From: a virus
Taxonomy: Duplodnaviria > Caudoviricetes
Direction: 5' to 3' (one strand)
DNA: 64,000 bases
IMG/VR virus record: IMGVR_UViG_3300020180_000003
Location: 14 to 64,013 of that record
Part shown: positions 31,328 through 58,921 of the stretch, one piece after another
Numbering within the stretch: position 1 is the stretch's first letter
Layout of the letters: the number at the start of each line of letters is the position of its first letter
Position numbers and translations under genes: made by a program
Notes under the pieces: model-generated
Seen by the model: only the letters and a program-made list of their open reading frames with translations
Databases searched by the model: none
Told to the model about the DNA's origin: nothing

Positions 31328-32698
31328 TCAGTCACCCCCAGCCGCGCGGCGTGGCAGACGAATAATTTTGGTATCGACAACGGGCTCGATCCGATCCAAT
31401 GCCTGATTGATTTTTGCCGTCCAGGTATTCCCCGCAAATGGCTTGCCAAACGCTGCTTGTGACGCCGCGCTTTTGCTCATGCCAGGAACCCACACGCTGC
31501 GCAATCTAGCCACCATTCTGCTGATCTCATCCTCTACTGACGGCTCTACTGACGGCTCTACTGACGGCTCTACTGACGGCTCTACTGACGGCTCTACTGG
31601 TGGCTCTACCGCACTGCTCACACGAGTGAAAACAGGAAATTCCTGTGCAGTAGAGAAAGCAGTAGAGGTCACACCACGCCACTTGCGCCCAATGCGCGTA
31701 ATCAATGATTCGCTGGCTACTTCATCCAACAGGTACGACTGGTAGCGGATGCAATCCAGGCCCGTGACATACAAAAACGCACCTTTGCCGGGCAACAGTT
31801 CGGCGTGCGTGCCCGGCCGGCCGGCTGCACAACTGGCGGCGCTTGCATCAGCGACCAACCCAACACACCGCGCTGAGAAATTATTTTTGATGGTTGAATC
31901 GCCCATCGCTTTGCCGGTCGGATGCTGGGTTGCAACCAACAGATTGATGTTGGCAGCTCGTCCCTTGCATACCAGTTCACCAACCAAACGCATACAATCA
32001 GCGTCGGCGGTCAGGTCGGCGTACTCGTCGATCACAATCAACAGGCGGGGCATGGCGACACGTTTAGCCTGTCGGCGTGCCATTTCATTGACGGCATCGG
32101 CAAGCACGGTTGAGGCACGGCTAATGGTTGTCGCCAGTACAGTGGCATGGGGCAATCTAGCCAGTGGCACAAGGTCAGTATTCTTCATATCGATCAACAG
32201 AATCCGCAGATCGTCGGGCGACGTATTCCAGCACAATGGCAATAACATATTCAGCATTGCCACACTCTTGCCCGCGCCGGTTGTGCCTGCTATCAGGACA
32301 TGCGGCGCATCGCTGAAACTGTGCCATAGGTCACGCGCCGCGCCGTCGTATGTGCGTCCCAGTAGCATCGAATGTGGTTCGCCGGTCAACGCTTCGGCAT
32401 TCCATAGCAGCGGCTTGCGGTGTGGATGTGTCACCTCCAACCGCAACGGGTGACGCAACAGGCGCACCAGGGTTTTCGTCCGGCGCTTGTTGCTGATAGA
32501 TTCGCTAATCTCCGGTAGGCGGCGCTCGATGTCGCTAATCGCCTGCCCTGCGACGGCACGCAGGCCGTAGATGACAAGCTGATCGCCGCCGACCACGGCC
32601 CAGGCTGGTTTCGTTCCGGCTTTCAGTTTGAAAGCTCGGAGCGTGGCGTTGATTGCCGAAATTTCCGACAGCAGATGTTGGCGTAGTTTGTCGTTCAT
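31328..32698 (-). CDS. FtsK/SpoIIIE-family ATPase (DNA translocase)
   Basis: APHVLIAGTTGAGKS, LIDMK, LLIVIDEYADL, GRAANINLLVATQHP. Confidence 0.92.
   Translation of the reverse strand: MNDKLRQHLLSEISAINATLRAFKLKAGTKPAWAVVGGDQLVIYGLRAVAGQAISDIERRLPEISESISNKRRTKTLVRLLRHPLRLEVTHPHRKPLLWNAEALTGEPHSMLLGRTYDGAARDLWHSFSDAPHVLIAGTTGAGKSVAMLNMLLPLCWNTSPDDLRILLIDMKNTDLVPLARLPHATVLATTISRASTVLADAVNEMARRQAKRVAMPRLLIVIDEYADLTADADCMRLVGELVCKGRAANINLLVATQHPTGKAMGDSTIKNNFSARCVGLVADASAASCAAGRPGTHAELLPGKGAFLYVTGLDCIRYQSYLLDEVASESLITRIGRKWRGVTSTAFSTAQEFPVFTRVSSAVEPPVEPSVEPSVEPSVEPSVEPSVEDEISRMVARLRSVWVPGMSKSAASQAAFGKPFAGNTWTAKINQALDRIEPVVDTKIIRLPRRAAGGD
31531..31609. repeat. 12-bp tandem repeat (VEPS)n in the FtsK linker
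   Basis: (ctctactgacgg) x about 6. Confidence 0.9.
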
Positions 32699-33219: not shown

Positions 33220-33434
33220 AGTGTCACCTTGCGCGGGAACGTAGCCACCGCGAACACGGCTGTAAGCGCCAGGCCAACCCATAAAGTCGTTGGGATAGCC
33301 ATAATGGACACCGCGACGGCCACCACGGCCACGATAAGCAGAGTGACAAGCAGCAGGGCTTGCAGCAACGTAGCCTGCCATGCTGTGGCGTCACGTACAA
33401 CGTGGGACGTTCCAAATACGATAGTCGATAGCAT
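33216..33434 (-). CDS. Small hydrophobic membrane protein
   Basis: MLSTIVFG start with GGAGG RBS. Confidence 0.55.
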   Translation of the reverse strand: MLSTIVFGTSHVVRDATAWQATLLQALLLVTLLIVAVVAVAVSIMAIPTTLWVGLALTAVFAVATFPRKVTL

Positions 33435-33512
33435 ATTGCCTCCGGTAAATGGATTATGGAGGGCAAACAAATGCCCACCAAAACGATAGAAGATTACCGT
33501 TAGATGGGCATG

Positions 33513-33600
33513 TGCTATACTTGGTATAGCCTGCCCGTTAGGTCTGCTCTAACGGTTATGGGTTACAGGGTGGATAGGTGTTTGCGCACCTGCTACCCTG
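33513..33600 (+). ncRNA. Putative antisense regulatory RNA (extended -10 promoter plus two hairpins)
   Basis: TGcTATACT at 33513-33521, then CCGTTAG/CTAACGG and CAGGGT..AGGTG/CACCT..ACCCTG stems. Confidence 0.4.
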
Positions 33601-33746
33601 GTACAATCTAGATACTGAGTCGAACGCTGCCAGACTTAACATCGGGTAGGCTGCGCAGTCGTGACATTTCTGCCTTAGCATCGGCCTCGTTCACGAGTTT
33701 TGAATGCTTCGTGCCCCGCATTGATTCCCACACGATTTTGATTTTT

Positions 33747-34001
33747 CTATTCGCCATGATTTCCCCCCCGACTATAGCGCTGCTTGATATGGCTAGCTAT
33801 CCCTAGCAGGCGCAACGATTCAGTATATTCATTGCCGGTGAACTTGGTTGCCAGTGCCCCGGCATTCAGCGACGTAATGTCTCCATCTTTGCCGACAATT
33901 GCACGTAACTTGTGGCCGACTCTAGTCGATAGCCGCACAGCGCAATGCGCCTGTATGCGCCGGTACACTTTTTGGCACTGCGTAGGCTCCGGTCGGTTCA
34001 T
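33747..34001 (-). CDS. Hypothetical protein
   Basis: Coupled (ATGA) to the upstream ORF. Confidence 0.5.
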   Translation of the reverse strand: MNRPEPTQCQKVYRRIQAHCAVRLSTRVGHKLRAIVGKDGDITSLNAGALATKFTGNEYTESLRLLGIASHIKQRYSRGGNHGE

Positions 34002-34258
34002 AACTGTTTTGCCTTATCCGCAGTCAGTGCCGCCATCTGTGCATGTAACCGCATTAGCTCACCCTCTAGGCTTTTCAGTCGCCCCCCTAGTCCTTGTACC
34101 ATCAGGCGCAATGACTCAACGTCCAGGCCCGTTACATCCTGCCCGGCGTCAATCGAGCGTAGCAGATTAGACAGGTAGTCGCCCCTTTTGCGCTCACCTC
34201 TGGCCAACTTGTTGAGTAACTCCCCGATCCCATCGTCTACCGACAGGTTTAGACGTTC
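33998..34258 (-). pseudogene. RHH (CopG-like) gene apparently lacking its start, abutting the last CRISPR repeat
   Basis: Frame reads ERLNLSVDDGIGELLNKLARGERKRGDYLSNLLR from the first base after the repeat; in-frame TAG inside the repeat. Confidence 0.55.
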
Positions 34259-34470
34259 CCCCTAACCCCTGCGCGTGTGGGGCGACCGTTTGCCCCGGCC
34301 AATGACAATTCCTGTGCAGCCCCTAACCCCTGCGCGTGTGGGGCGACCCTCGATACGTTGTTCGTGGTTCTGCAACGTTGCCCCTAACCCCTGCGCGTGT
34401 GGGGCGACCTGTTTCCAGGTCAACGAGTTTGGCAGACGCATCCCCTAACCCCTGCGCGTGTGGGGCGACC
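34259..34470 (-). CRISPR. Mini CRISPR array: 4 identical 29-bp repeats, 3 spacers of 32 bp
   Basis: Repeat (minus strand) GGTCGCCCCACACGCGCAGGGGTTAGGGG at 34259-34287, 34320-34348, 34381-34409, 34442-34470; unique spacers; 61-bp period as in type I-E. Confidence 0.97.
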
Positions 34471-34597
34471 CCTATTACGGCAGTCACCCGCAAGGTTATC
34501 CACGCTTACAGGGTTCCTAGTTCATCGGCGCACTATCGTGCTGTCCTCCCTAGGCCATTTTAACGACCACGGTGTAGGTACTCCCGCAGTCGGCGCA
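34471..34597 (-). ncRNA. omegaRNA/tracrRNA-like scaffold with anti-repeat
   Basis: Stems CGACUGCGG/CCGUGGUCG, CCUAG/CUAGG, GCAC/GUGC; segments AACCCUG..GCGUG and GGGUGACU complementary to the repeat. Confidence 0.75.
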
Positions 34598-35770
34598 TTA
34601 GGCTGCGCTTGCCAATCTAACGGCCTCATTGCGAATATTGATTGCAGCGTTGCCGTCTCGTTCGTGTTCAGCCCCACAATCAGGACAAGCCCAGGTTCGT
34701 ATTGACAATGGCAGTTCCTTGACCTTTTCACCACAATTAGAACAGGTCTTGCTGCTGGCGAACCAGCGATCTACAGCGATGACCTTGCCGCCAACAGAAA
34801 TAGACTTGTATTGCAACTGTAGGCGCACTTGATACATGCCTGCATCGCTGACGGCTTTGGCTAATCGGCGATTCTTGACCATGCCTTTGATATTCAGGTC
34901 TTCCACTCCAATCAATCCATATTCGCCAACGATTTCCGTTGTCATCTTATGGGCATTATCCCTGCGAACGTCAGCAATGCTTGCATGTAGCTTGGCAATT
35001 TCCAGTTTTCGCTTTTGGTAGTTTCTCCCCTTCACGTCTGCATCACGCATTCGCTGAAACGACCGTTGCAGTTTTGCGAGCTTGCGTTGATGTTGTTTTA
35101 GCGCCTTGGGGTTGCGATAAACCACCCCGTCGCTAGTGACGGCCCGATACCTGATTCCCATATCAATCCCGACCGTCTTCGATATGTCGGCGGTCTGTTC
35201 AAGGTCGGCGACTTCGGACTGTACGGCAAGATACCAGTACCCGCCCGTGTAGCTGACGCGTCCGCCCAATACTTTCCCTTCAAAGCGCAAAGGTTCGGCC
35301 ATATTAACGGCCCCGTCTGGGCAGCGTGAAATCATGACGCCGTGACCGTCAAACTTCATTCCGCCATTGTTAGCAAGTCCAAAGGACGGCGTTACCTTGT
35401 CGCGTGACTTGAAGCGCGGCCAACCAAACGGCTTCCCGTCCTTGCGCGGTTTCCAGCCTACTGGTGCCTTCAAGGTGCCTTTTTTCCTTAGATCAAAGTA
35501 TCGGCTGATCGAAGATTGTAAATCTTGAAAGGCGTACTGATTGGCGTAGGTTTGTACTTCTGCCACAAAAGGTGCAAATTCTTCCTGATTGCGCCGACGA
35601 TTAAACTCCTTCTTTAATTCTAGAATTTTGGGCTTCTCGCCACGTGTTAACCCGTTGTTGTATTCAGCCAACGCCCAGTTCCATGTAAAGCGGGCGATTC
35701 CTGCGCACTGCCAAAAGTAGCGAGCCTGTTCGTCAGTTGGGTTCAATCGTATTCTGTGCGCCCGAATCAT
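34598..35770 (-). CDS. tnpB: TnpB-family RNA-guided endonuclease (Cas12-like, CRISPR-associated)
   Basis: N-terminal HTH (IRLNPTDEQ), RuvC-I GIDMG, RuvC-II VEDL, Zn finger CSNCG/CPDCG, RuvC-III RDGNAAINI; catalytic D-E-D intact. Confidence 0.95.
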   Translation of the reverse strand: MIRAHRIRLNPTDEQARYFWQCAGIARFTWNWALAEYNNGLTRGEKPKILELKKEFNRRRNQEEFAPFVAEVQTYANQYAFQDLQSSISRYFDLRKKGTLKAPVGWKPRKDGKPFGWPRFKSRDKVTPSFGLANNGGMKFDGHGVMISRCPDGAVNMAEPLRFEGKVLGGRVSYTGGYWYLAVQSEVADLEQTADISKTVGIDMGIRYRAVTSDGVVYRNPKALKQHQRKLAKLQRSFQRMRDADVKGRNYQKRKLEIAKLHASIADVRRDNAHKMTTEIVGEYGLIGVEDLNIKGMVKNRRLAKAVSDAGMYQVRLQLQYKSISVGGKVIAVDRWFASSKTCSNCGEKVKELPLSIRTWACPDCGAEHERDGNAAINIRNEAVRLASAA

Positions 35771-35831
35771 CTAGAACTCCTATCCACAATATCGCCAGAA
35801 TGACTGTATGCCACCTAGATTTGATTTTATA

Positions 35832-36050
35832 CTATATTGCCGTGTATTCCGGTGTTGCGCTTGTTTCTAGCGCCTCTATGCGCTGTTCATGATTATCTAG
35901 TCGTTTCGCAATTGAGTCGTGGTGTCGATAATCACGAACAAACATTTCCACCAACGCGGCGCGTCCTTTGGTGCCTTCCACTTTACAAATCTTATCCATT
36001 GCATCTATCGTCTGTTGAGATAATCGCAATGACAAAGGTTTATTTGCCAC
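35832..36050 (-). CDS. RHH-type DNA-binding protein
   Basis: GTG start with GGAGG RBS; KPLSLRLSQQTIDAMDKIC...RAALVEMFV. Confidence 0.7.
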   Translation of the reverse strand: MANKPLSLRLSQQTIDAMDKICKVEGTKGRAALVEMFVRDYRHHDSIAKRLDNHEQRIEALETSATPEYTAI

Positions 36051-36089
36051 ATCGCCTCCGTAGTCCGTTCGTATCACCATTTGGGCTAC

Positions 36090-36119
36090 ATTCTAACACG
36101 ACTCCATCCCCCGTGTCAA
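36090..36119 (-). promoter_or_regulatory. Sigma70-like promoter for the RHH-tnpB-scaffold-array unit
   Basis: TTGACA-N18-TAGAAT with TG extension. Confidence 0.65.
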
Positions 36120-36529
36120 GCACCAGTTTTCAATGGTGTCCGTTCTGTGCGGTTGTAGCATTCGTTGATGCGCGCCCGCAATGTTTCGCGCTCGGCATCG
36201 CTCAGTCGGAGCCAGGGTCGCACGCTTTGAGCGATGGTCGTTTCGATACGCGGTGCGGGGCGTTTCTCTGGGCGTGGCGACGCTCTGGCTTTTTTGCGCA
36301 GTGGCGGCTGGCGCGGCGTCCCGGCAATCTCCTGCTGTGTGCGGCGTTTCACGCAACCGCAACTCCGCACTTTGCCTTTAACAATGTCGGCGGCGGCCAC
36401 GTTGCGCGTACCGCCACAATCGCAGAGGCATTCCCAGAGGATGCCGCCGCTTTTGTTTTTGCCGACCACGCGCACGGCTACCAGTTTCGTCGATCTCATC
36501 CCTGCTACGTTCAATGACTGCCTGATCAT
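36116..36529 (-). CDS. Protein with HNH-endonuclease-type N-terminal Cys domain
   Basis: LWECLCDCG...VRSCGC resembles the N-terminus of 32695..33219. Confidence 0.55.
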   Translation of the reverse strand: MIRQSLNVAGMRSTKLVAVRVVGKNKSGGILWECLCDCGGTRNVAAADIVKGKVRSCGCVKRRTQQEIAGTPRQPPLRKKARASPRPEKRPAPRIETTIAQSVRPWLRLSDAERETLRARINECYNRTERTPLKTGA

Positions 36530-37137
36530 TTCGTTTGCCCCTTTCGATACAATTTGAAACAATTACTACACATCGTTGTCAGCGGCCACGCCCGTCGATC
36601 CCTGGCCGTCTGCGCTGTCACCCACTGCGCTTGCACCGACCGACCGCAAAGGCCCACGGTGCCCATATCGCGGCTGATGTGGATACGTGCCCCATTTCGC
36701 CCGATTAGCGCCCATTGCGGAGGCGCCGGAGGACAGACGCAGCCGTTGATGCACCCGCAGTCAGAACACACGATATCGGCGGCGGGTAGCTGTTCGCCGT
36801 AGACGTACCACGGCGCCGCAGCTAGTGTTTCGATATCGGCCAACACTGGCGCAAACTCCATGGAGCGGCCCACATTGTTGGCCGCGAATAGGCCGCATAA
36901 CATTTCGGCATAATGCCGGCTCGCGATCGGATCGGGCCCAACCGGGATGACTGGCACACACCGGCCTGGATGTTGGGCATTGGTGTAGCGTCGGCCCTCC
37001 TTCTCCAGCGACGTACCGCCACTAATTGCCGACAGAGGCCAGCGAATTTCGACAATCCAGAACAGCCGGTGCAATTCGTTCTGACGAGATGCCCCGGCGA
37101 TGACTTTGCGCTGGAAGGTGTTAGTCTGGGTTGACAT
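36526..37137 (-). CDS. Hypothetical Cys-rich protein
   Basis: Coupled ORF. Confidence 0.55.
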   Translation of the reverse strand: MSTQTNTFQRKVIAGASRQNELHRLFWIVEIRWPLSAISGGTSLEKEGRRYTNAQHPGRCVPVIPVGPDPIASRHYAEMLCGLFAANNVGRSMEFAPVLADIETLAAAPWYVYGEQLPAADIVCSDCGCINGCVCPPAPPQWALIGRNGARIHISRDMGTVGLCGRSVQAQWVTAQTARDRRAWPLTTMCSNCFKLYRKGQTK

Positions 37138-49742: not shown

Positions 49743-50567
49743 ATGAACAACAAAACCAATGGTATGCGCGCAAACCTAGCTGGCGCAAACCTATGGGGTA
49801 AAAACCTAGTTGGCGCTAACCTAGTCGGTGCGAAACTGCGGGGCGCTGATCTAGGGAGCGCTTTGCTGGATGGCGCGAATCTGCGGGATGCGGATCTAGG
49901 GGGCGCTTCTCTGTGGAATTCTCGCCTAGAGGGTGCCGATCTAAAAGGTGCCAATCTAGTCGGTACCGATCTAGTCGGTACCATTCTGACGGGTGCAAAT
50001 CTAGAGGGTGCCAATCTGTCGGGTGCCAATCTGGAAGGTTCGGATCTGACGGGTGCCAATCTGGTCGGTGCCAAGCTAGTTGGCGCTAACCTAGTCGGTG
50101 CGAAACTACGGGGCACCAATCTGGAGTGTGCCAATCTGTTCGGTGCCAATCTGGAGGGTGCCAATCTGGAGTGTGCCAATCTGTTCGGTGCCAATCTGGA
50201 GGGTGCCAATCTGGAGTGTGCCAATCTGGAGGGTGCCAATCTAGTCGGTGCCAATCTGTCGGGTGCGGATATGTCGGGCGCGGCTCTAGAAGGTTCGGAT
50301 CTGACGGGCACTGTTCTAGAAAATGTCAAAAATATTATTATAGCGGGTACCGATCCCCGCGGGCATCTATTCTATGGCTCCATTGACAAGAACGGATGCC
50401 TGATCGTAAAAGCCGGTTGCCGGAAATTCGCTGGCGTGGATGCTGCGAATATGCACTGGCGGGTTCGACATCATGACGATCCAGTACTCCACGCGGCTTG
50501 CCTGGATCTGGTTAGTGAGATCGAAGAAAAAGCTGCTCGCAATGGGTGGCAGCTTAACCCCAATTAG
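49743..50567 (+). CDS. Pentapeptide repeat protein
   Basis: Long A(N/D)LxG tract (15-bp repeats); C-terminal VKAGC domain. Confidence 0.95.
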   Translation: MNNKTNGMRANLAGANLWGKNLVGANLVGAKLRGADLGSALLDGANLRDADLGGASLWNSRLEGADLKGANLVGTDLVGTILTGANLEGANLSGANLEGSDLTGANLVGAKLVGANLVGAKLRGTNLECANLFGANLEGANLECANLFGANLEGANLECANLEGANLVGANLSGADMSGAALEGSDLTGTVLENVKNIIIAGTDPRGHLFYGSIDKNGCLIVKAGCRKFAGVDAANMHWRVRHHDDPVLHAACLDLVSEIEEKAARNGWQLNPN

Positions 50568-56827: not shown

Positions 56828-58921
56828 ATGACCGTCGCACGCATTATCCCGAAACGCATACGTGACCAACAGGATGCCAACCTAACACTAGGAGCGGGCA
56901 CCAATGGCTATGCCGTCATCTACAGCCATACCACCGGCTTATTCGAGTTGGCGGCGCTTGAGGCCGTAGGCGTGGCGGCTGGGCTGATTACCGCGCACGT
57001 TGGATTGTCGAATCCACACACCCAATACACTCTTGCATCGTCATTCACCACGCACCAAGCGCTGACCACGGCGCATGGTATCAGCGCGTATGGCGCAACG
57101 CTGGTTGATGACGCCGACGCTACAACAGCGCGTGGTACGCTGGGACTGGGCACAATGGCGACGCAGGACAGCACTGCGTATCTGTTGGCAAGCGGCTACA
57201 CGGCAGCAGATGTACTCAGCAAACTATTGACTGTAGACGGCAGCGGTAGCGGTCTGGACGCTGATTTACTGGACGGGTTGAGTAGCGCCGCGTTTGAGGC
57301 TGTGGGTGTGGCGGCCACACATGCGGCTCTTACCGCGGCGCATGGCGCAACCGGTGCGGTGGTCGGTACCACGAACACGCAGACCCTGACTGGCAAAACC
57401 ATCGCGGGCGGGGCTGCTGCTACAGAGTCGGCCAATCTTGTCGTCAATGGCACATTTGACACTGATACCAGTTGGACGAAAGGCACCAACTGGACGATTG
57501 CGGCAGGGGTAGCAACAAAAACGGCGGGGAGCGCAGCGGATCTCACACAGAATCTAGGCGAGGCGGCGGGAAAAATGTACAGTGTGCGCTTCGGCTACAC
57601 ACGCACGGCGGGCACGTTGTCGGTCTCCATCGGCGGGGTCACGCACGCAACGACATTTAGTGCGGCCAGTGGTAGCGGCGATTTGTATATGCTGGCAATC
57701 AGCACAGCAGATTTGTCATTCATAGCAGATGCTACGTTCGCCGGTACGATTGACAATGTAATTGTTGGTGAGATTGTGGCGACCACTACCGTGATGTCAC
57801 TCAGTAATGCTGCTGGCACTGTCGTACGTCCGGTGCGTCTGGCGACTGGCTCCATCGGCATAGATGGCGGTGGGACATTCAACACGACAGGCAACTACTG
57901 GAATGCCCTTGGGCAACAAGCAGGCTACAGTAACACGACAGGCGGCTACTGGAACGCCTTCGGCTATCAGGCAGGCTACTTTAACACGACAGGCGGCTAC
58001 TGGAATGCCCTTGGGCAACAAGCAGGCTACAGTAACACGACAGGCACCTACTGGAACGCCTTCGGGCGGGAGGCAGGCTACAGTAACACGACTGGCAGCC
58101 AATGGAACGCCTTTGGCTTACAGGCAGGCTACTTTAACACGACAGGCGGCTTCTGGAACGCCTTCGGCTATCAGGCAGGCTACTTTAACACGACAGGCGG
58201 CTACTGGAACGCCTTCGGGCGGGAGGCAGGCTACAGTAACACGACTGGCAGCCAATGGAACGCCTTTGGGCGGCAGGCGGGCTACTTTAACACGACAGGC
58301 AGCTTCTGGAACGCCTTCGGCTATCGAGCGCTCTATCTAGCGACCGGATCCGGCAACCAGGGATTTGGCTTCCAGGCTGGCGACAATATCACGACCGGCC
58401 AATATAATCTCGTACTGGGCTACGACCTGGATGCACCATCTGCCACCGCCGATTACCAACTAGCCATCGGTGGCTATATCGTTGGCGATGGTAGCCGTAT
58501 TTGGCTTGAACCACGCACCGACTCGACGACGGGAGTCCAGTTTCGCGCAGCGAACGGCACGACTGTGCTGTTTAATGTGGACACGACATCTGGGCTGACG
58601 ACGCTCACCGGCACCAGTACGGCGACTCATGCCGCTTTCCAAATGATGAGCAGCACAACGCCTGGGCGAGATGCCGGTCGACTGGCATGGGACTGGCCTA
58701 CGCCAACCGATGCCGTACGAGCTAGTCGTGGCAAACTGACGGCCTATTTTACGTCAACCGAACAGGAAGCAATCCGCTGGACTGGCGACACGGGCGGGAT
58801 TCTGCTTGGCTTTTACGGGCAGGCGGGGGCAGCACGGCAACTACTCGCCACCGGAGCAGCACGCACGGTTGACGATGTGATCACGTTCTTGCAAAATTTA
58901 GGATTAGCAAAGCAGTCATAG
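56828..58921 (+). CDS. Fibre-like virion protein with carbohydrate-binding-like domain and 14-aa beta-roll repeats
   Basis: GSGLDADLLDG fibre motif, LVVNGTFDTDTSW, (GYxNTTGxxWNAFG)n. Confidence 0.7.
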   Translation: MTVARIIPKRIRDQQDANLTLGAGTNGYAVIYSHTTGLFELAALEAVGVAAGLITAHVGLSNPHTQYTLASSFTTHQALTTAHGISAYGATLVDDADATTARGTLGLGTMATQDSTAYLLASGYTAADVLSKLLTVDGSGSGLDADLLDGLSSAAFEAVGVAATHAALTAAHGATGAVVGTTNTQTLTGKTIAGGAAATESANLVVNGTFDTDTSWTKGTNWTIAAGVATKTAGSAADLTQNLGEAAGKMYSVRFGYTRTAGTLSVSIGGVTHATTFSAASGSGDLYMLAISTADLSFIADATFAGTIDNVIVGEIVATTTVMSLSNAAGTVVRPVRLATGSIGIDGGGTFNTTGNYWNALGQQAGYSNTTGGYWNAFGYQAGYFNTTGGYWNALGQQAGYSNTTGTYWNAFGREAGYSNTTGSQWNAFGLQAGYFNTTGGFWNAFGYQAGYFNTTGGYWNAFGREAGYSNTTGSQWNAFGRQAGYFNTTGSFWNAFGYRALYLATGSGNQGFGFQAGDNITTGQYNLVLGYDLDAPSATADYQLAIGGYIVGDGSRIWLEPRTDSTTGVQFRAANGTTVLFNVDTTSGLTTLTGTSTATHAAFQMMSSTTPGRDAGRLAWDWPTPTDAVRASRGKLTAYFTSTEQEAIRWTGDTGGILLGFYGQAGAARQLLATGAARTVDDVITFLQNLGLAKQS
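57878..58325 (+). repeat. 42-bp tandem repeat, about 10.5 copies
   Basis: aacacgacaggc..ctggaacgccttcgg...caggctac recurring. Confidence 0.9.

Follow-up and report, generated by a model that had tools for sequence, protein, structure and literature searches.

A short array of repeats and spacers downstream of a gene for the nuclease TnpB ends, exact to the base, inside a conserved phage gene, where its last repeat (34287-34259) abuts codon 5 of what is in related phages an intact gene of 87-90 amino acids. The DNA analysed, referred to here as the window, comprises 64,000 nucleotides (nt) of the IMG/VR virus record IMGVR_UViG_3300020180_000003 (positions 14 to 64,013), which is nearly the whole of that 64,013-bp record. 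A second, unrelated phage carries the same succession of tnpB, a short spacing and an array, and the last spacer of its array matches the beginning of the very next gene. The explanation favoured here, held tentatively and at somewhat less than an even chance, is that the array belongs to TnpB, that its guides target the 5' end of the adjoining gene, and that the junction arose by recombination between a fourth spacer and its target. That TnpB would use the repeats, which transposon-associated motif (TAM) it would require and whether a guide may be active at present are points that we infer from the arrangement and from its relatives.

The array ends inside a truncated gene

The four repeats of the array are identical, none of 100 dinucleotide shuffles gave any match, and the hairpin that a repeat can form on its own consists of only four G-C pairs. 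Translation of the minus strand from 34285 to 33995 gives SPHTRRG*GERLNLSVDDGIGELLNKLARGERKRGDYLSNLLR...KQL*, with an in-frame TAG inside the last repeat; the open frame begins at 34258, the first base past that repeat, and contains no ATG, GTG or TTG before the TTG at 34207. An earlier note on this DNA had described an open frame that starts at the base after a terminal repeat that is not degenerate, with a TAG in frame and no ATG before it, and all of these features were found again on translation and on comparison of the four repeats.

Relatives indicate what the gene has lost. Homologues numbered 64 among 84 candidates (52-103 amino acids), and the N-termini of the 23 that were aligned read M-x-x-K-ERLNLSV or M-x-ERLNLSV, that is, with 2-4 residues before ERLNL and with R2, N4 and L5 invariant throughout. 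At each of the 12 loci fetched, which include one identical sequence under two labels (L005 and L017), an ATG lies 2-4 codons upstream and is accompanied by a ribosome-binding site and a promoter-like TTGACA. The earlier note had considered that such genes might start naturally at a downstream CTG or TTG. No such start was seen among the homologues, and the objection fails because their ATG lies upstream.

The nearest relative (locus L006; protein P0001, 98% identical) is 96.2% identical in DNA over 262 nt, from window position 34258 to 33997. The homology starts at the first base past the repeat and stops at the end of the gene, and the ten base differences comprise eight synonymous and two conservative changes. 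Over the first 32 nt of the flank, L006 differs at positions 6 and 7 only, and the three close relatives have GCAAA, GGAAA and ACAAA just before it. Alignment with phages that carry the intact gene, which the earlier note had suggested as a way of defining the insertion, places the start of homology on the right-hand side at 34258 and leaves the left end and the TAM undefined. No remnant of the promoter, the 5' untranslated region or the first codons of the gene was found upstream of the module formed by tnpB and the array, or elsewhere in the window, and a simple insertion of the module is not shown, since no left-hand gene remnant exists. As a single query the truncated gene retrieved no relative from IMG/VR, and an alignment used as the query led to one distant locus.

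The downstream neighbours of the truncated gene are native. The next open reading frame (ORF) belongs to the same native operon, because its ATG overlaps the stop codon of the truncated gene, and locus L007 has homologues of the next two ORFs downstream of its intact gene; the membrane protein is encoded in L006. The idea that the gene fragment is foreign target DNA captured by the array was rejected on account of this native gene order. L006 (1397-2701) and L007 also carry, after the intact regulator gene and ahead of the next ORFs, a gene of about 434 amino acids that the window is without. The window and L006 cease to be similar precisely at the ATGA overlap (33998), which forms a second sharp mosaic boundary.

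A second phage with the same design

The second phage (G407) was found by scanning IMG/VR with a 17-nt core of the repeat, which gave three matches in all. Its record of 57,890 bp has no DNA similarity to the window, and its locus has no DNA match in the INPHARED phage database. In order on one strand, it encodes a TnpB of 405 amino acids with the same three Pfam domains, then about 105 nt, four 29-nt repeats with a period of 61 and three 32-nt spacers, followed after 25 nt by the ATG of the phage gene phrog_4652. One copy of its repeat agrees with the window repeat throughout positions 4-22, and over the last 7 nt the two diverge; degeneracy is greatest in the terminal repeat, which has 86% identity to repeat 1. 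This terminal repeat has a perfect 6-bp hairpin (CCCCAC...GTGGGG) that repeats 1-3 are without, and the older repeat is more class 1-like in look, the other repeats being more like partners of the scaffold. A supposed partial copy of the repeat upstream of the G407 tnpB was rejected as not significant (E=0.24).

The last spacer of G407, spacer 3, agrees in 31 of 32 bases with codons 7-17 of the very next gene, which lie 73 nt downstream in the same orientation. The single mismatch falls at guide position 1, where the spacer reads ATC and the gene reads GTC, and the protospacer is preceded by TGAAG. The closest homologue of this neighbouring gene (P0065, 95% identical) begins MDAVKIELTG and carries at that codon the Ile that the spacer encodes. 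The spacer consequently fits the allele of a relative better than the phage's own, an agreement that holds at the level of the codon because only the protein sequence of P0065 was seen.

The two phages differ in how their arrays end. G407 has a degenerate terminal repeat and the window has identical repeats, the latter being what the loss of the true array end would be expected to leave. In G407 spacer 3 and its target stand side by side, and their recombination would reproduce the structure of the window. In our reading, G407 has guide and target next to each other and the window has both merged. The TnpBs of the two phages share a clade of nine rows in a tree of 123 (Shimodaira-Hasegawa-like approximate likelihood ratio, SH-aLRT, 97), and neither Cas1 nor a Y1 TnpA was found in either phage record.

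The TnpB gene and its putative scaffold

The window TnpB carries a helix-turn-helix (HTH), a RuvC (OrfB_IS605) and a zinc-ribbon TNB domain, with Pfam E-values of 8e-16, 3e-24 and 6.5e-21, respectively. The RuvC residues D203/E290/D372 and the zinc ribbon CxxC...CxxC align with those of its relatives, as they do in G407, and the protein is by these residues predicted to be catalytically intact. The element is single-copy in the genome. In the tree, the window TnpB is sister to that of L018 and then to that of L074. The former (53-55% identical) is inserted between phage structural genes on a contig that ends 51 nt past the gene, and the latter (43% identical) has no array.

Between the stop codon of tnpB and repeat 1 lies a sequence resembling an omegaRNA scaffold. 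Its motif GAAnnAGGAAn and the hairpin that follows are common to 13 cyanobacterial, 2-3 Moraxella and five viral TnpB copies, among which, wherever comparison of copies allows the end of the element to be mapped, the distance from the motif to that end is 53 nt in the 13 cyanobacterial copies, 61 nt in Moraxella and 101 nt in the five viral ones.

Pairing between scaffold and repeat is a feature that would tie the array to TnpB. The G407 scaffold can pair with the whole of repeat 1 (about 26 bp), including the divergent 3' end of the repeat. The duplex has a predicted energy of -44.9 kcal/mol, compared with -35.4+-3.3 for shuffled repeats, a value reached by 1 of 500 shuffles; it ranks fourth among 1914 windows of the genome and ties for second to third in a stricter pairing scan, with a fold z of -3.0. 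The window duplex reaches -32.4 kcal/mol, compared with -26.7+-3.1 (19/500 shuffles), and the minimum free energy fold pairs repeat 1 with 34521-34481 in the same topology as in G407 (z = -1.98). When scaffold and repeat were taken from different phages, the pairs were unremarkable, being equalled by 114/500 and 181/500 shuffles. These comparisons are fair evidence for a link of the trans-activating CRISPR RNA (tracr) kind in G407, and weakly suggest one in the window (CRISPR, short palindromic repeats that are clustered and regularly interspaced).

Table 1. Positions of the features discussed in the text; coordinates refer to the window unless stated otherwise
Feature	Position	Strand	Remarks
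Sigma-70-like promoter site	36090..36119	-	TTGACA-18-TAGAAT, 11/12; only strong site on the minus strand upstream of the module
82-amino-acid ORF (RHH-A) upstream of tnpB	35832..36080	-	weak Pfam RHH_1 match, then coiled-coil tail
61-nt gap, RHH-A stop to tnpB ATG	35771..35831	-	possible left boundary of the TnpB element; aligns weakly with sequence upstream of the L018 TnpB
tnpB, 390 amino acids	34598..35770	-	Pfam HTH_OrfB_IS605, OrfB_IS605, Cas12f1-like_TNB
OmegaRNA-like scaffold, 127 nt, tnpB stop to repeat 1	34471..34597	-	motif GAACTAGGAAC at 34523-34513; 34521-34481 can pair with the repeat
Mini-array, 4 repeats and 3 spacers	34259..34470	-	repeats 29 nt, spacers 32 nt
Repeats	34470-34442, 34409-34381, 34348-34320, 34287-34259	-	all four identical, 29 nt
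Spacers 1-3	34441-34410, 34380-34349, 34319-34288	-	32 nt each
First 32 nt after the last repeat	34227..34258	-	would-be guide or former spacer; also codons 5-15 of the truncated gene
5'-truncated gene (RHH-B), 86 codons and stop	33998..34258	-	without promoter, ribosome-binding site, ATG and 4 codons
Next ORF, 84 amino acids	33747..34001	-	start codon and the stop of the truncated gene overlap in ATGA
G407 array	locus L165 1644-1433; record 28099-27888	-	4 repeats, 3 spacers

How the junction may have arisen

According to the favoured explanation, the array would be a phage-borne, TnpB-linked mini-CRISPR of a V-U-like or 'split omegaRNA' kind, in which the last stem of the scaffold obtains its 3' strand from the repeat and the spacers act as guides. 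These guides would be aimed at the 5' end of the gene behind the module, as found in related phages. Most likely, the protospacer of a fourth spacer lay in the phage's own copy of the gene, and the two underwent homologous recombination to give the junction. Such a crossover would delete the old terminal repeat or repeats together with the ribosome-binding site, the ATG and four codons, and would join an undegenerate repeat to codon 5. The regulator gene, which in relatives is the integrase-linked first gene of an operon, would now be a recent remnant. A double exchange between spacers and protospacers on both sides of the array was rejected, as the bases preceding on the left are GCG, unlike the AAA on the right. 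The origin of the array from a resident 29-nt sequence was rejected as well, the repeat being unlike the 5' region of the gene in relatives, and a supposed degenerate repeat 61 nt upstream of repeat 1 matches in only 9 of 29 bases.

Transcription from the promoter upstream of the module would pass through tnpB, the array and the remnant; a scan of the minus strand found no promoter-like or terminator-like site between the three. Because transcription would run through the array into the remnant, an RNA composed of the last repeat and GAACGUCUAAAC... would have the form of a type V or TnpB guide, and it would match intact alleles preceded by NAAA. The phage's own copy would not be cleavable by this guide, since bases of the repeat occupy the position of the TAM. 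Both statements would hold equally if the junction had arisen by insertion. Whether the last repeat and flank still act as a guide, as the earlier note had envisaged, is judged to be doubtful.

A more far-reaching version, which we consider rather improbable, holds that a TnpB of plain size took over an array of class 1 geometry (29/32) as split omegaRNA guides, and that the whole serves as a homing or competition cassette against rival phages. A rival genome would be cut at the 5' end of the neighbouring gene, the cassette would be copied in by recombination, and the phage's own copy would be protected by the mismatch at guide position 1, as in G407, or by the fusion of repeat and target, as in the window.

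Several observations weigh against the favoured explanation. The first 20 nt of the flank are perfectly matched in none of the three close relatives, with two mismatches in L006 and more in L007 and L008. No match to spacers 1-3 was obtained in the window itself, the fetched loci, the phage database or, as exact 20-mers, in IMG/VR, although such exact scans would miss diverged protospacers; no TAM or protospacer-adjacent motif (PAM) can be derived, because these window spacers matched no target. The pairing of scaffold and repeat in the window is not among the top 8 of 2119 genome windows, nor among the top 10 of the pairing scan. Counting 53 nt past the scaffold motif, the distance seen in the cyanobacterial copies, leads to the start of repeat 1 rather than to the last repeat, and the TnpB element could accordingly end before the array. 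The TnpBs of the two phages are only about 34% identical and that of G407 sits on a long branch; the design was seen at two loci only, and other members of the clade are without an array. A phage array without TnpB (G406) shares the repeat core with the window, and the combination of 29-nt repeats, 32-nt spacers and a CCCC-N9-GGGG core is one that we take to be typical of class 1, type I-E arrays. Finally, the absence of the integrase and of the promoter of the gene requires an additional event.

Alternative explanations

The strongest alternative, which is itself unlikely, regards the array as a mini-array of host type (class 1, I-E-like), used with the Cascade complex of the host against rival phages, with TnpB a mere bystander. 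The junction would then be the scar of an illegitimate deletion or of an aberrant excision that took away the integrase, the promoter and the start of the gene, and the remnant would be junk from which, in the absence of a downstream repeat, no usable CRISPR RNA (crRNA) could be made with the last repeat. The repeats and the exact 32-nt spacers presumably fit type I-E, the repeat core is common to the seven-repeat array of G406, and the ends of related TnpB elements fit an end just before repeat 1. AAG is the canonical type I-E PAM, and AAG precedes the G407 protospacer. A recombinase lies upstream of the gene in 9 of 10 relatives and none is encoded in the window genome, which resembles a replacement of the transducing-phage kind. 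Viral mini-arrays with host repeats directed against related viruses are also known, as described in the parts of PMC11656645 and PMC7099407 considered here.

This alternative does not account for the order TnpB, scaffold and array in two unrelated phages with no leader before repeat 1, nor for the full-length complement of the repeat in the G407 scaffold, which class 1 arrays do not need; moreover, it would be rare for a random deletion to stop no more than 1 nt from the boundary of a repeat. A host that uses the repeat was also not encountered. The exact 29-mer had no match in IMG/VR, an exact 23-mer none in 185,579 species genomes, and a search of 401 genomes from the phylum to which L074 belongs revealed no array of the repeat, six of these genomes having single, chance-level matches with three mismatches; the host, however, may be unsampled.

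A second alternative, to which we give a small chance, is the strict form of what the earlier note proposed. The whole module would be an element of the IS200/IS605 type inserted between codons 4 and 5, the last repeat would be its right end and the flank its original homing guide, with spacers 1-3 added later on the side of the scaffold. The premise of that proposal, that TnpB takes its guides from DNA adjacent to the element's right end and that the empty donor joint is cut, is in print (PMC8612924, in the portion drawn on here). The exact truncation at the 5' end, the native gene order downstream and an apparently intact TnpB agree with an insertion; repeat 1 can serve as the last stem of the scaffold, and G407, which repeats the design of TnpB and array, has its oldest spacer placed 44 nt from the end of the array, within the neighbouring gene. 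More speculatively, AAA precedes the flank in the three close relatives and CAAA sits 49 nt upstream of the tnpB ATG.

Against an insertion stands above all the missing left-hand part of the gene: its promoter, ribosome-binding site, ATG and first codons are absent upstream of the module and throughout the window, the stop codon of another ORF lies directly upstream instead, and a second event is needed to explain the loss. The genome encodes no TnpA. The motif TTTAAC/TTAAC, which was found before the cyanobacterial and Psychrobacter copies, is absent at the left end in the window and before the flank in the relatives, and the ends of 13 cyanobacterial elements map to the start of repeat 1. 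Spacers of exactly 32 nt would also be left unexplained without a Cas1-Cas2 ruler. The interpretation in the earlier note is overall partly supported.

It is very improbable that the truncated gene is still expressed as a shortened protein with a function of its own, from the CTG that forms codon 9 in the intact gene or from the TTG at 34207, with the array supplying transcription and a GGGGG stretch resembling a Shine-Dalgarno sequence: although the frame is intact over 86 codons with mostly synonymous differences from L006, read-through transcription is likely, the repeat ends in GGGG and is followed by G, and GGGGAG lies 12 nt before the TTG, either start would delete R2, N4 and L5, the CTG is spaced by 11 nt and the TTG by 12 nt, both poor distances, a clean frame is equally expected after a recent truncation, and the partner integrase is gone.

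Identity of the truncated gene

The earlier note had called the gene a decapitated ribbon-helix-helix (RHH) gene. The truncation is borne out, four codons and all expression signals being gone, and the RHH label is not established. The truncated gene has no match in Pfam or PHROGs, a profile search against the PDB gave nothing relevant and Foldseek found nothing in the PDB at E<=0.001. Set beside the strand-helix-helix pattern that had been read from its translation, an AlphaFold2 monomer model consists of an N-terminal coil, a helix, a second helix and a long helix (predicted local distance difference test, pLDDT, 82.8). Only the neighbours in the ESM Atlas hint at the RHH clan: these are RHH_1, CopG, NikA and TacA1 clusters at 0.87-0.90, in which RHH_1 is assigned to only 14-15% of the cluster members. 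The label is no more than a lead.

The genes that lie upstream of the intact gene were scanned in ten relatives and are all divergent. Eight are of the tyrosine-integrase type (two of these are cut by contig ends, one retaining a SAM-like domain only and one falling below the cut-off), one is a serine resolvase and one has no match. The truncated gene looks like the first gene of an operon that faces the integrase, and may have encoded a switch regulator or a directionality factor. Whole-genome searches found no tyrosine integrase, serine recombinase or resolvase, Y1 TnpA or Cas1 encoded in the window genome. The lysogeny module seems to have been lost from this phage, since the recombinase that adjoins the gene in 9 of 10 relatives is absent here.

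The genome and the region upstream of tnpB

The record has direct terminal repeats and an estimated completeness of 100%. The genome encodes portal and major head proteins, an FtsK-like ATPase, a DnaB-like helicase, a replication initiator and a methyltransferase, and prediction of the host from the portal protein was uninformative. The array is reproduced by independent unitigs of the single public sequencing run (DNA) that was found to hold the locus; the breaks between unitigs in that run are explained by the repeat structure itself, and neither variants nor joints were seen in the contigs. This check is not an independent one, because the run may be the source sample. No RNA run was among those listed for the locus. 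The region of interest has no DNA relatives in INPHARED (query window 33400-36600), where the array and its flank gave only one chance match (E=0.7), and no Rfam family was found between 33000 and 37000.

Upstream of tnpB, RHH-A matches Pfam RHH_1 with E=0.0072, below the curated cut-off. It has no counterpart upstream of the closest TnpB, that of L018, and the idea that it is a paralogue of the truncated gene was rejected, BLASTP and hhalign both being negative. Only about 9 nt separate the end of the strong promoter-like site from the ATG of RHH-A (36080), and its mRNA may for this reason be leaderless or nearly so.

Tandem repeats occur elsewhere in the genome. The ORF of the FtsK-like protein (31328-32698, minus strand) contains a 12-nt tandem repeat in at least 6 copies at 31520-31615, which encodes a (VEPS)n run near the C-terminus. 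Within long ORFs on the plus strand, a unit of 51 nt is repeated in tandem about 8 times at 57830-58390 and one of 15 nt about 14 times at 50000-50333, and these probably encode repetitive structural proteins.

Other array-bearing loci

When TnpB loci were screened with a crude repeat detector, 8 of 56 viral and 2 of 80 genome loci were flagged, of which L055, L048 and L023 were inspected; by this detector, none of the 80 genome loci has an adjacent array. L055 is another, unrelated phage array linked to a TnpB/Cas12-like gene. In this AT-rich viral contig (L055:72-1141), a TnpB-like gene, 39% identical over its C-terminal part, is followed after about 175 nt by four 37-nt repeats with a period of 73-74. 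The array of G406 (L176; record 34490-34905) has seven repeats of 28-29 nt, spacers of 32-33 nt and degenerate distal repeats. TnpB was not found in the G406 record, which is 81% complete, and this array looks like an ordinary viral mini-array.

Relation to known systems

In several respects the module resembles TnpB and its omegaRNA (or right-end RNA, reRNA) in IS200/IS605 elements such as ISDra2. As far as these are described in the available part of PMC8612924, they share with the window a small TnpB with HTH, RuvC and zinc ribbon and a D-E-D triad; their scaffold that starts at the 3' end of tnpB, their guide directly 3' of the scaffold, and an element end that replaces the TAM and prevents self-cutting have putative counterparts in the window. 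In contrast to the ISDra2 type in that account, the window has four 29-nt repeats and three 32-nt spacers in place of one guide derived from the flank. It also has no TnpA or second copy, its left end and TAM are undefined, and the ends of its relatives map to the start of the array.

Arrays that follow TnpB-derived effectors have been described, and either the duplication of an omegaRNA segment or the insertion of tnpB beside an existing array has been proposed as their origin (PMC10691335). To judge from the sections of that work considered here, the present design is like TnpB-derived type V systems without adaptation genes (Cas12f-like, V-U*) in having a short, co-oriented array downstream of the effector with no cas1, cas2 or cas4, a tracr-like complement of the repeat between gene and array (clear in G407, weak in the window), and two clustered TnpBs that are linked to arrays. 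Unlike these systems, as portrayed there, it has a TnpB of plain size (390-405 amino acids), the 29/32 geometry of class 1, type I-E, a repeat 1 that is contiguous with the scaffold, and one guide, in G407, that matches the neighbouring gene. On these features the locus seems best filed, as a variant, among the TnpB-derived, array-bearing phage systems, and its cluster may already be among the 40 V-U* branches of PMC10691335.

The viral CRISPR mini-arrays that use host Cas proteins, as outlined in the accessible parts of PMC11656645 and PMC7099407, are likewise phage-borne, with 1-3 spacers and no cas genes, and at least one spacer here (G407 spacer 3) is similarly aimed at the allele of a close relative. 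Different from those described there is the welding of the array to a TnpB scaffold without a leader. Here, the targeted gene is the neighbour of the array itself, and in the window it is fused to the end of the array.

A precedent for the proposed crossover may also exist. Recombination between a CRISPR spacer and a phage protospacer reportedly joins phage and host arrays and drives transduction, a case attributed to Varble et al. 2019 (Nat Microbiol). That case resembles the present one in the use of a spacer-protospacer identity of 30-odd bp as the site of crossover and in phage DNA that directly follows a repeat. It differs in that the event proposed here is an intragenomic deletion in the phage that carries the array, deduced only from the precursor-like state of G407.

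What the locus would mean depends on which explanation is right. If the array is of host type, the window holds an ordinary mini-array beside an insertion sequence, together with a deletion scar. If the homing-cassette account were true, the window would be a living intermediate between TnpB and type V CRISPR, with a flank-derived 'fourth guide' at work. Intermediates between TnpB and Cas12 arrays are scarce, and a TnpB followed by a scaffold and a 29/32 array in two unrelated phages is a testable intermediate. Such loci could show how phages use RNA-guided nucleases against each other's alleles, by homing or by exclusion. Recombination between guide and target would further offer a mechanistic reason for the truncation of a gene exactly at a repeat boundary, a pattern that can be searched for elsewhere.

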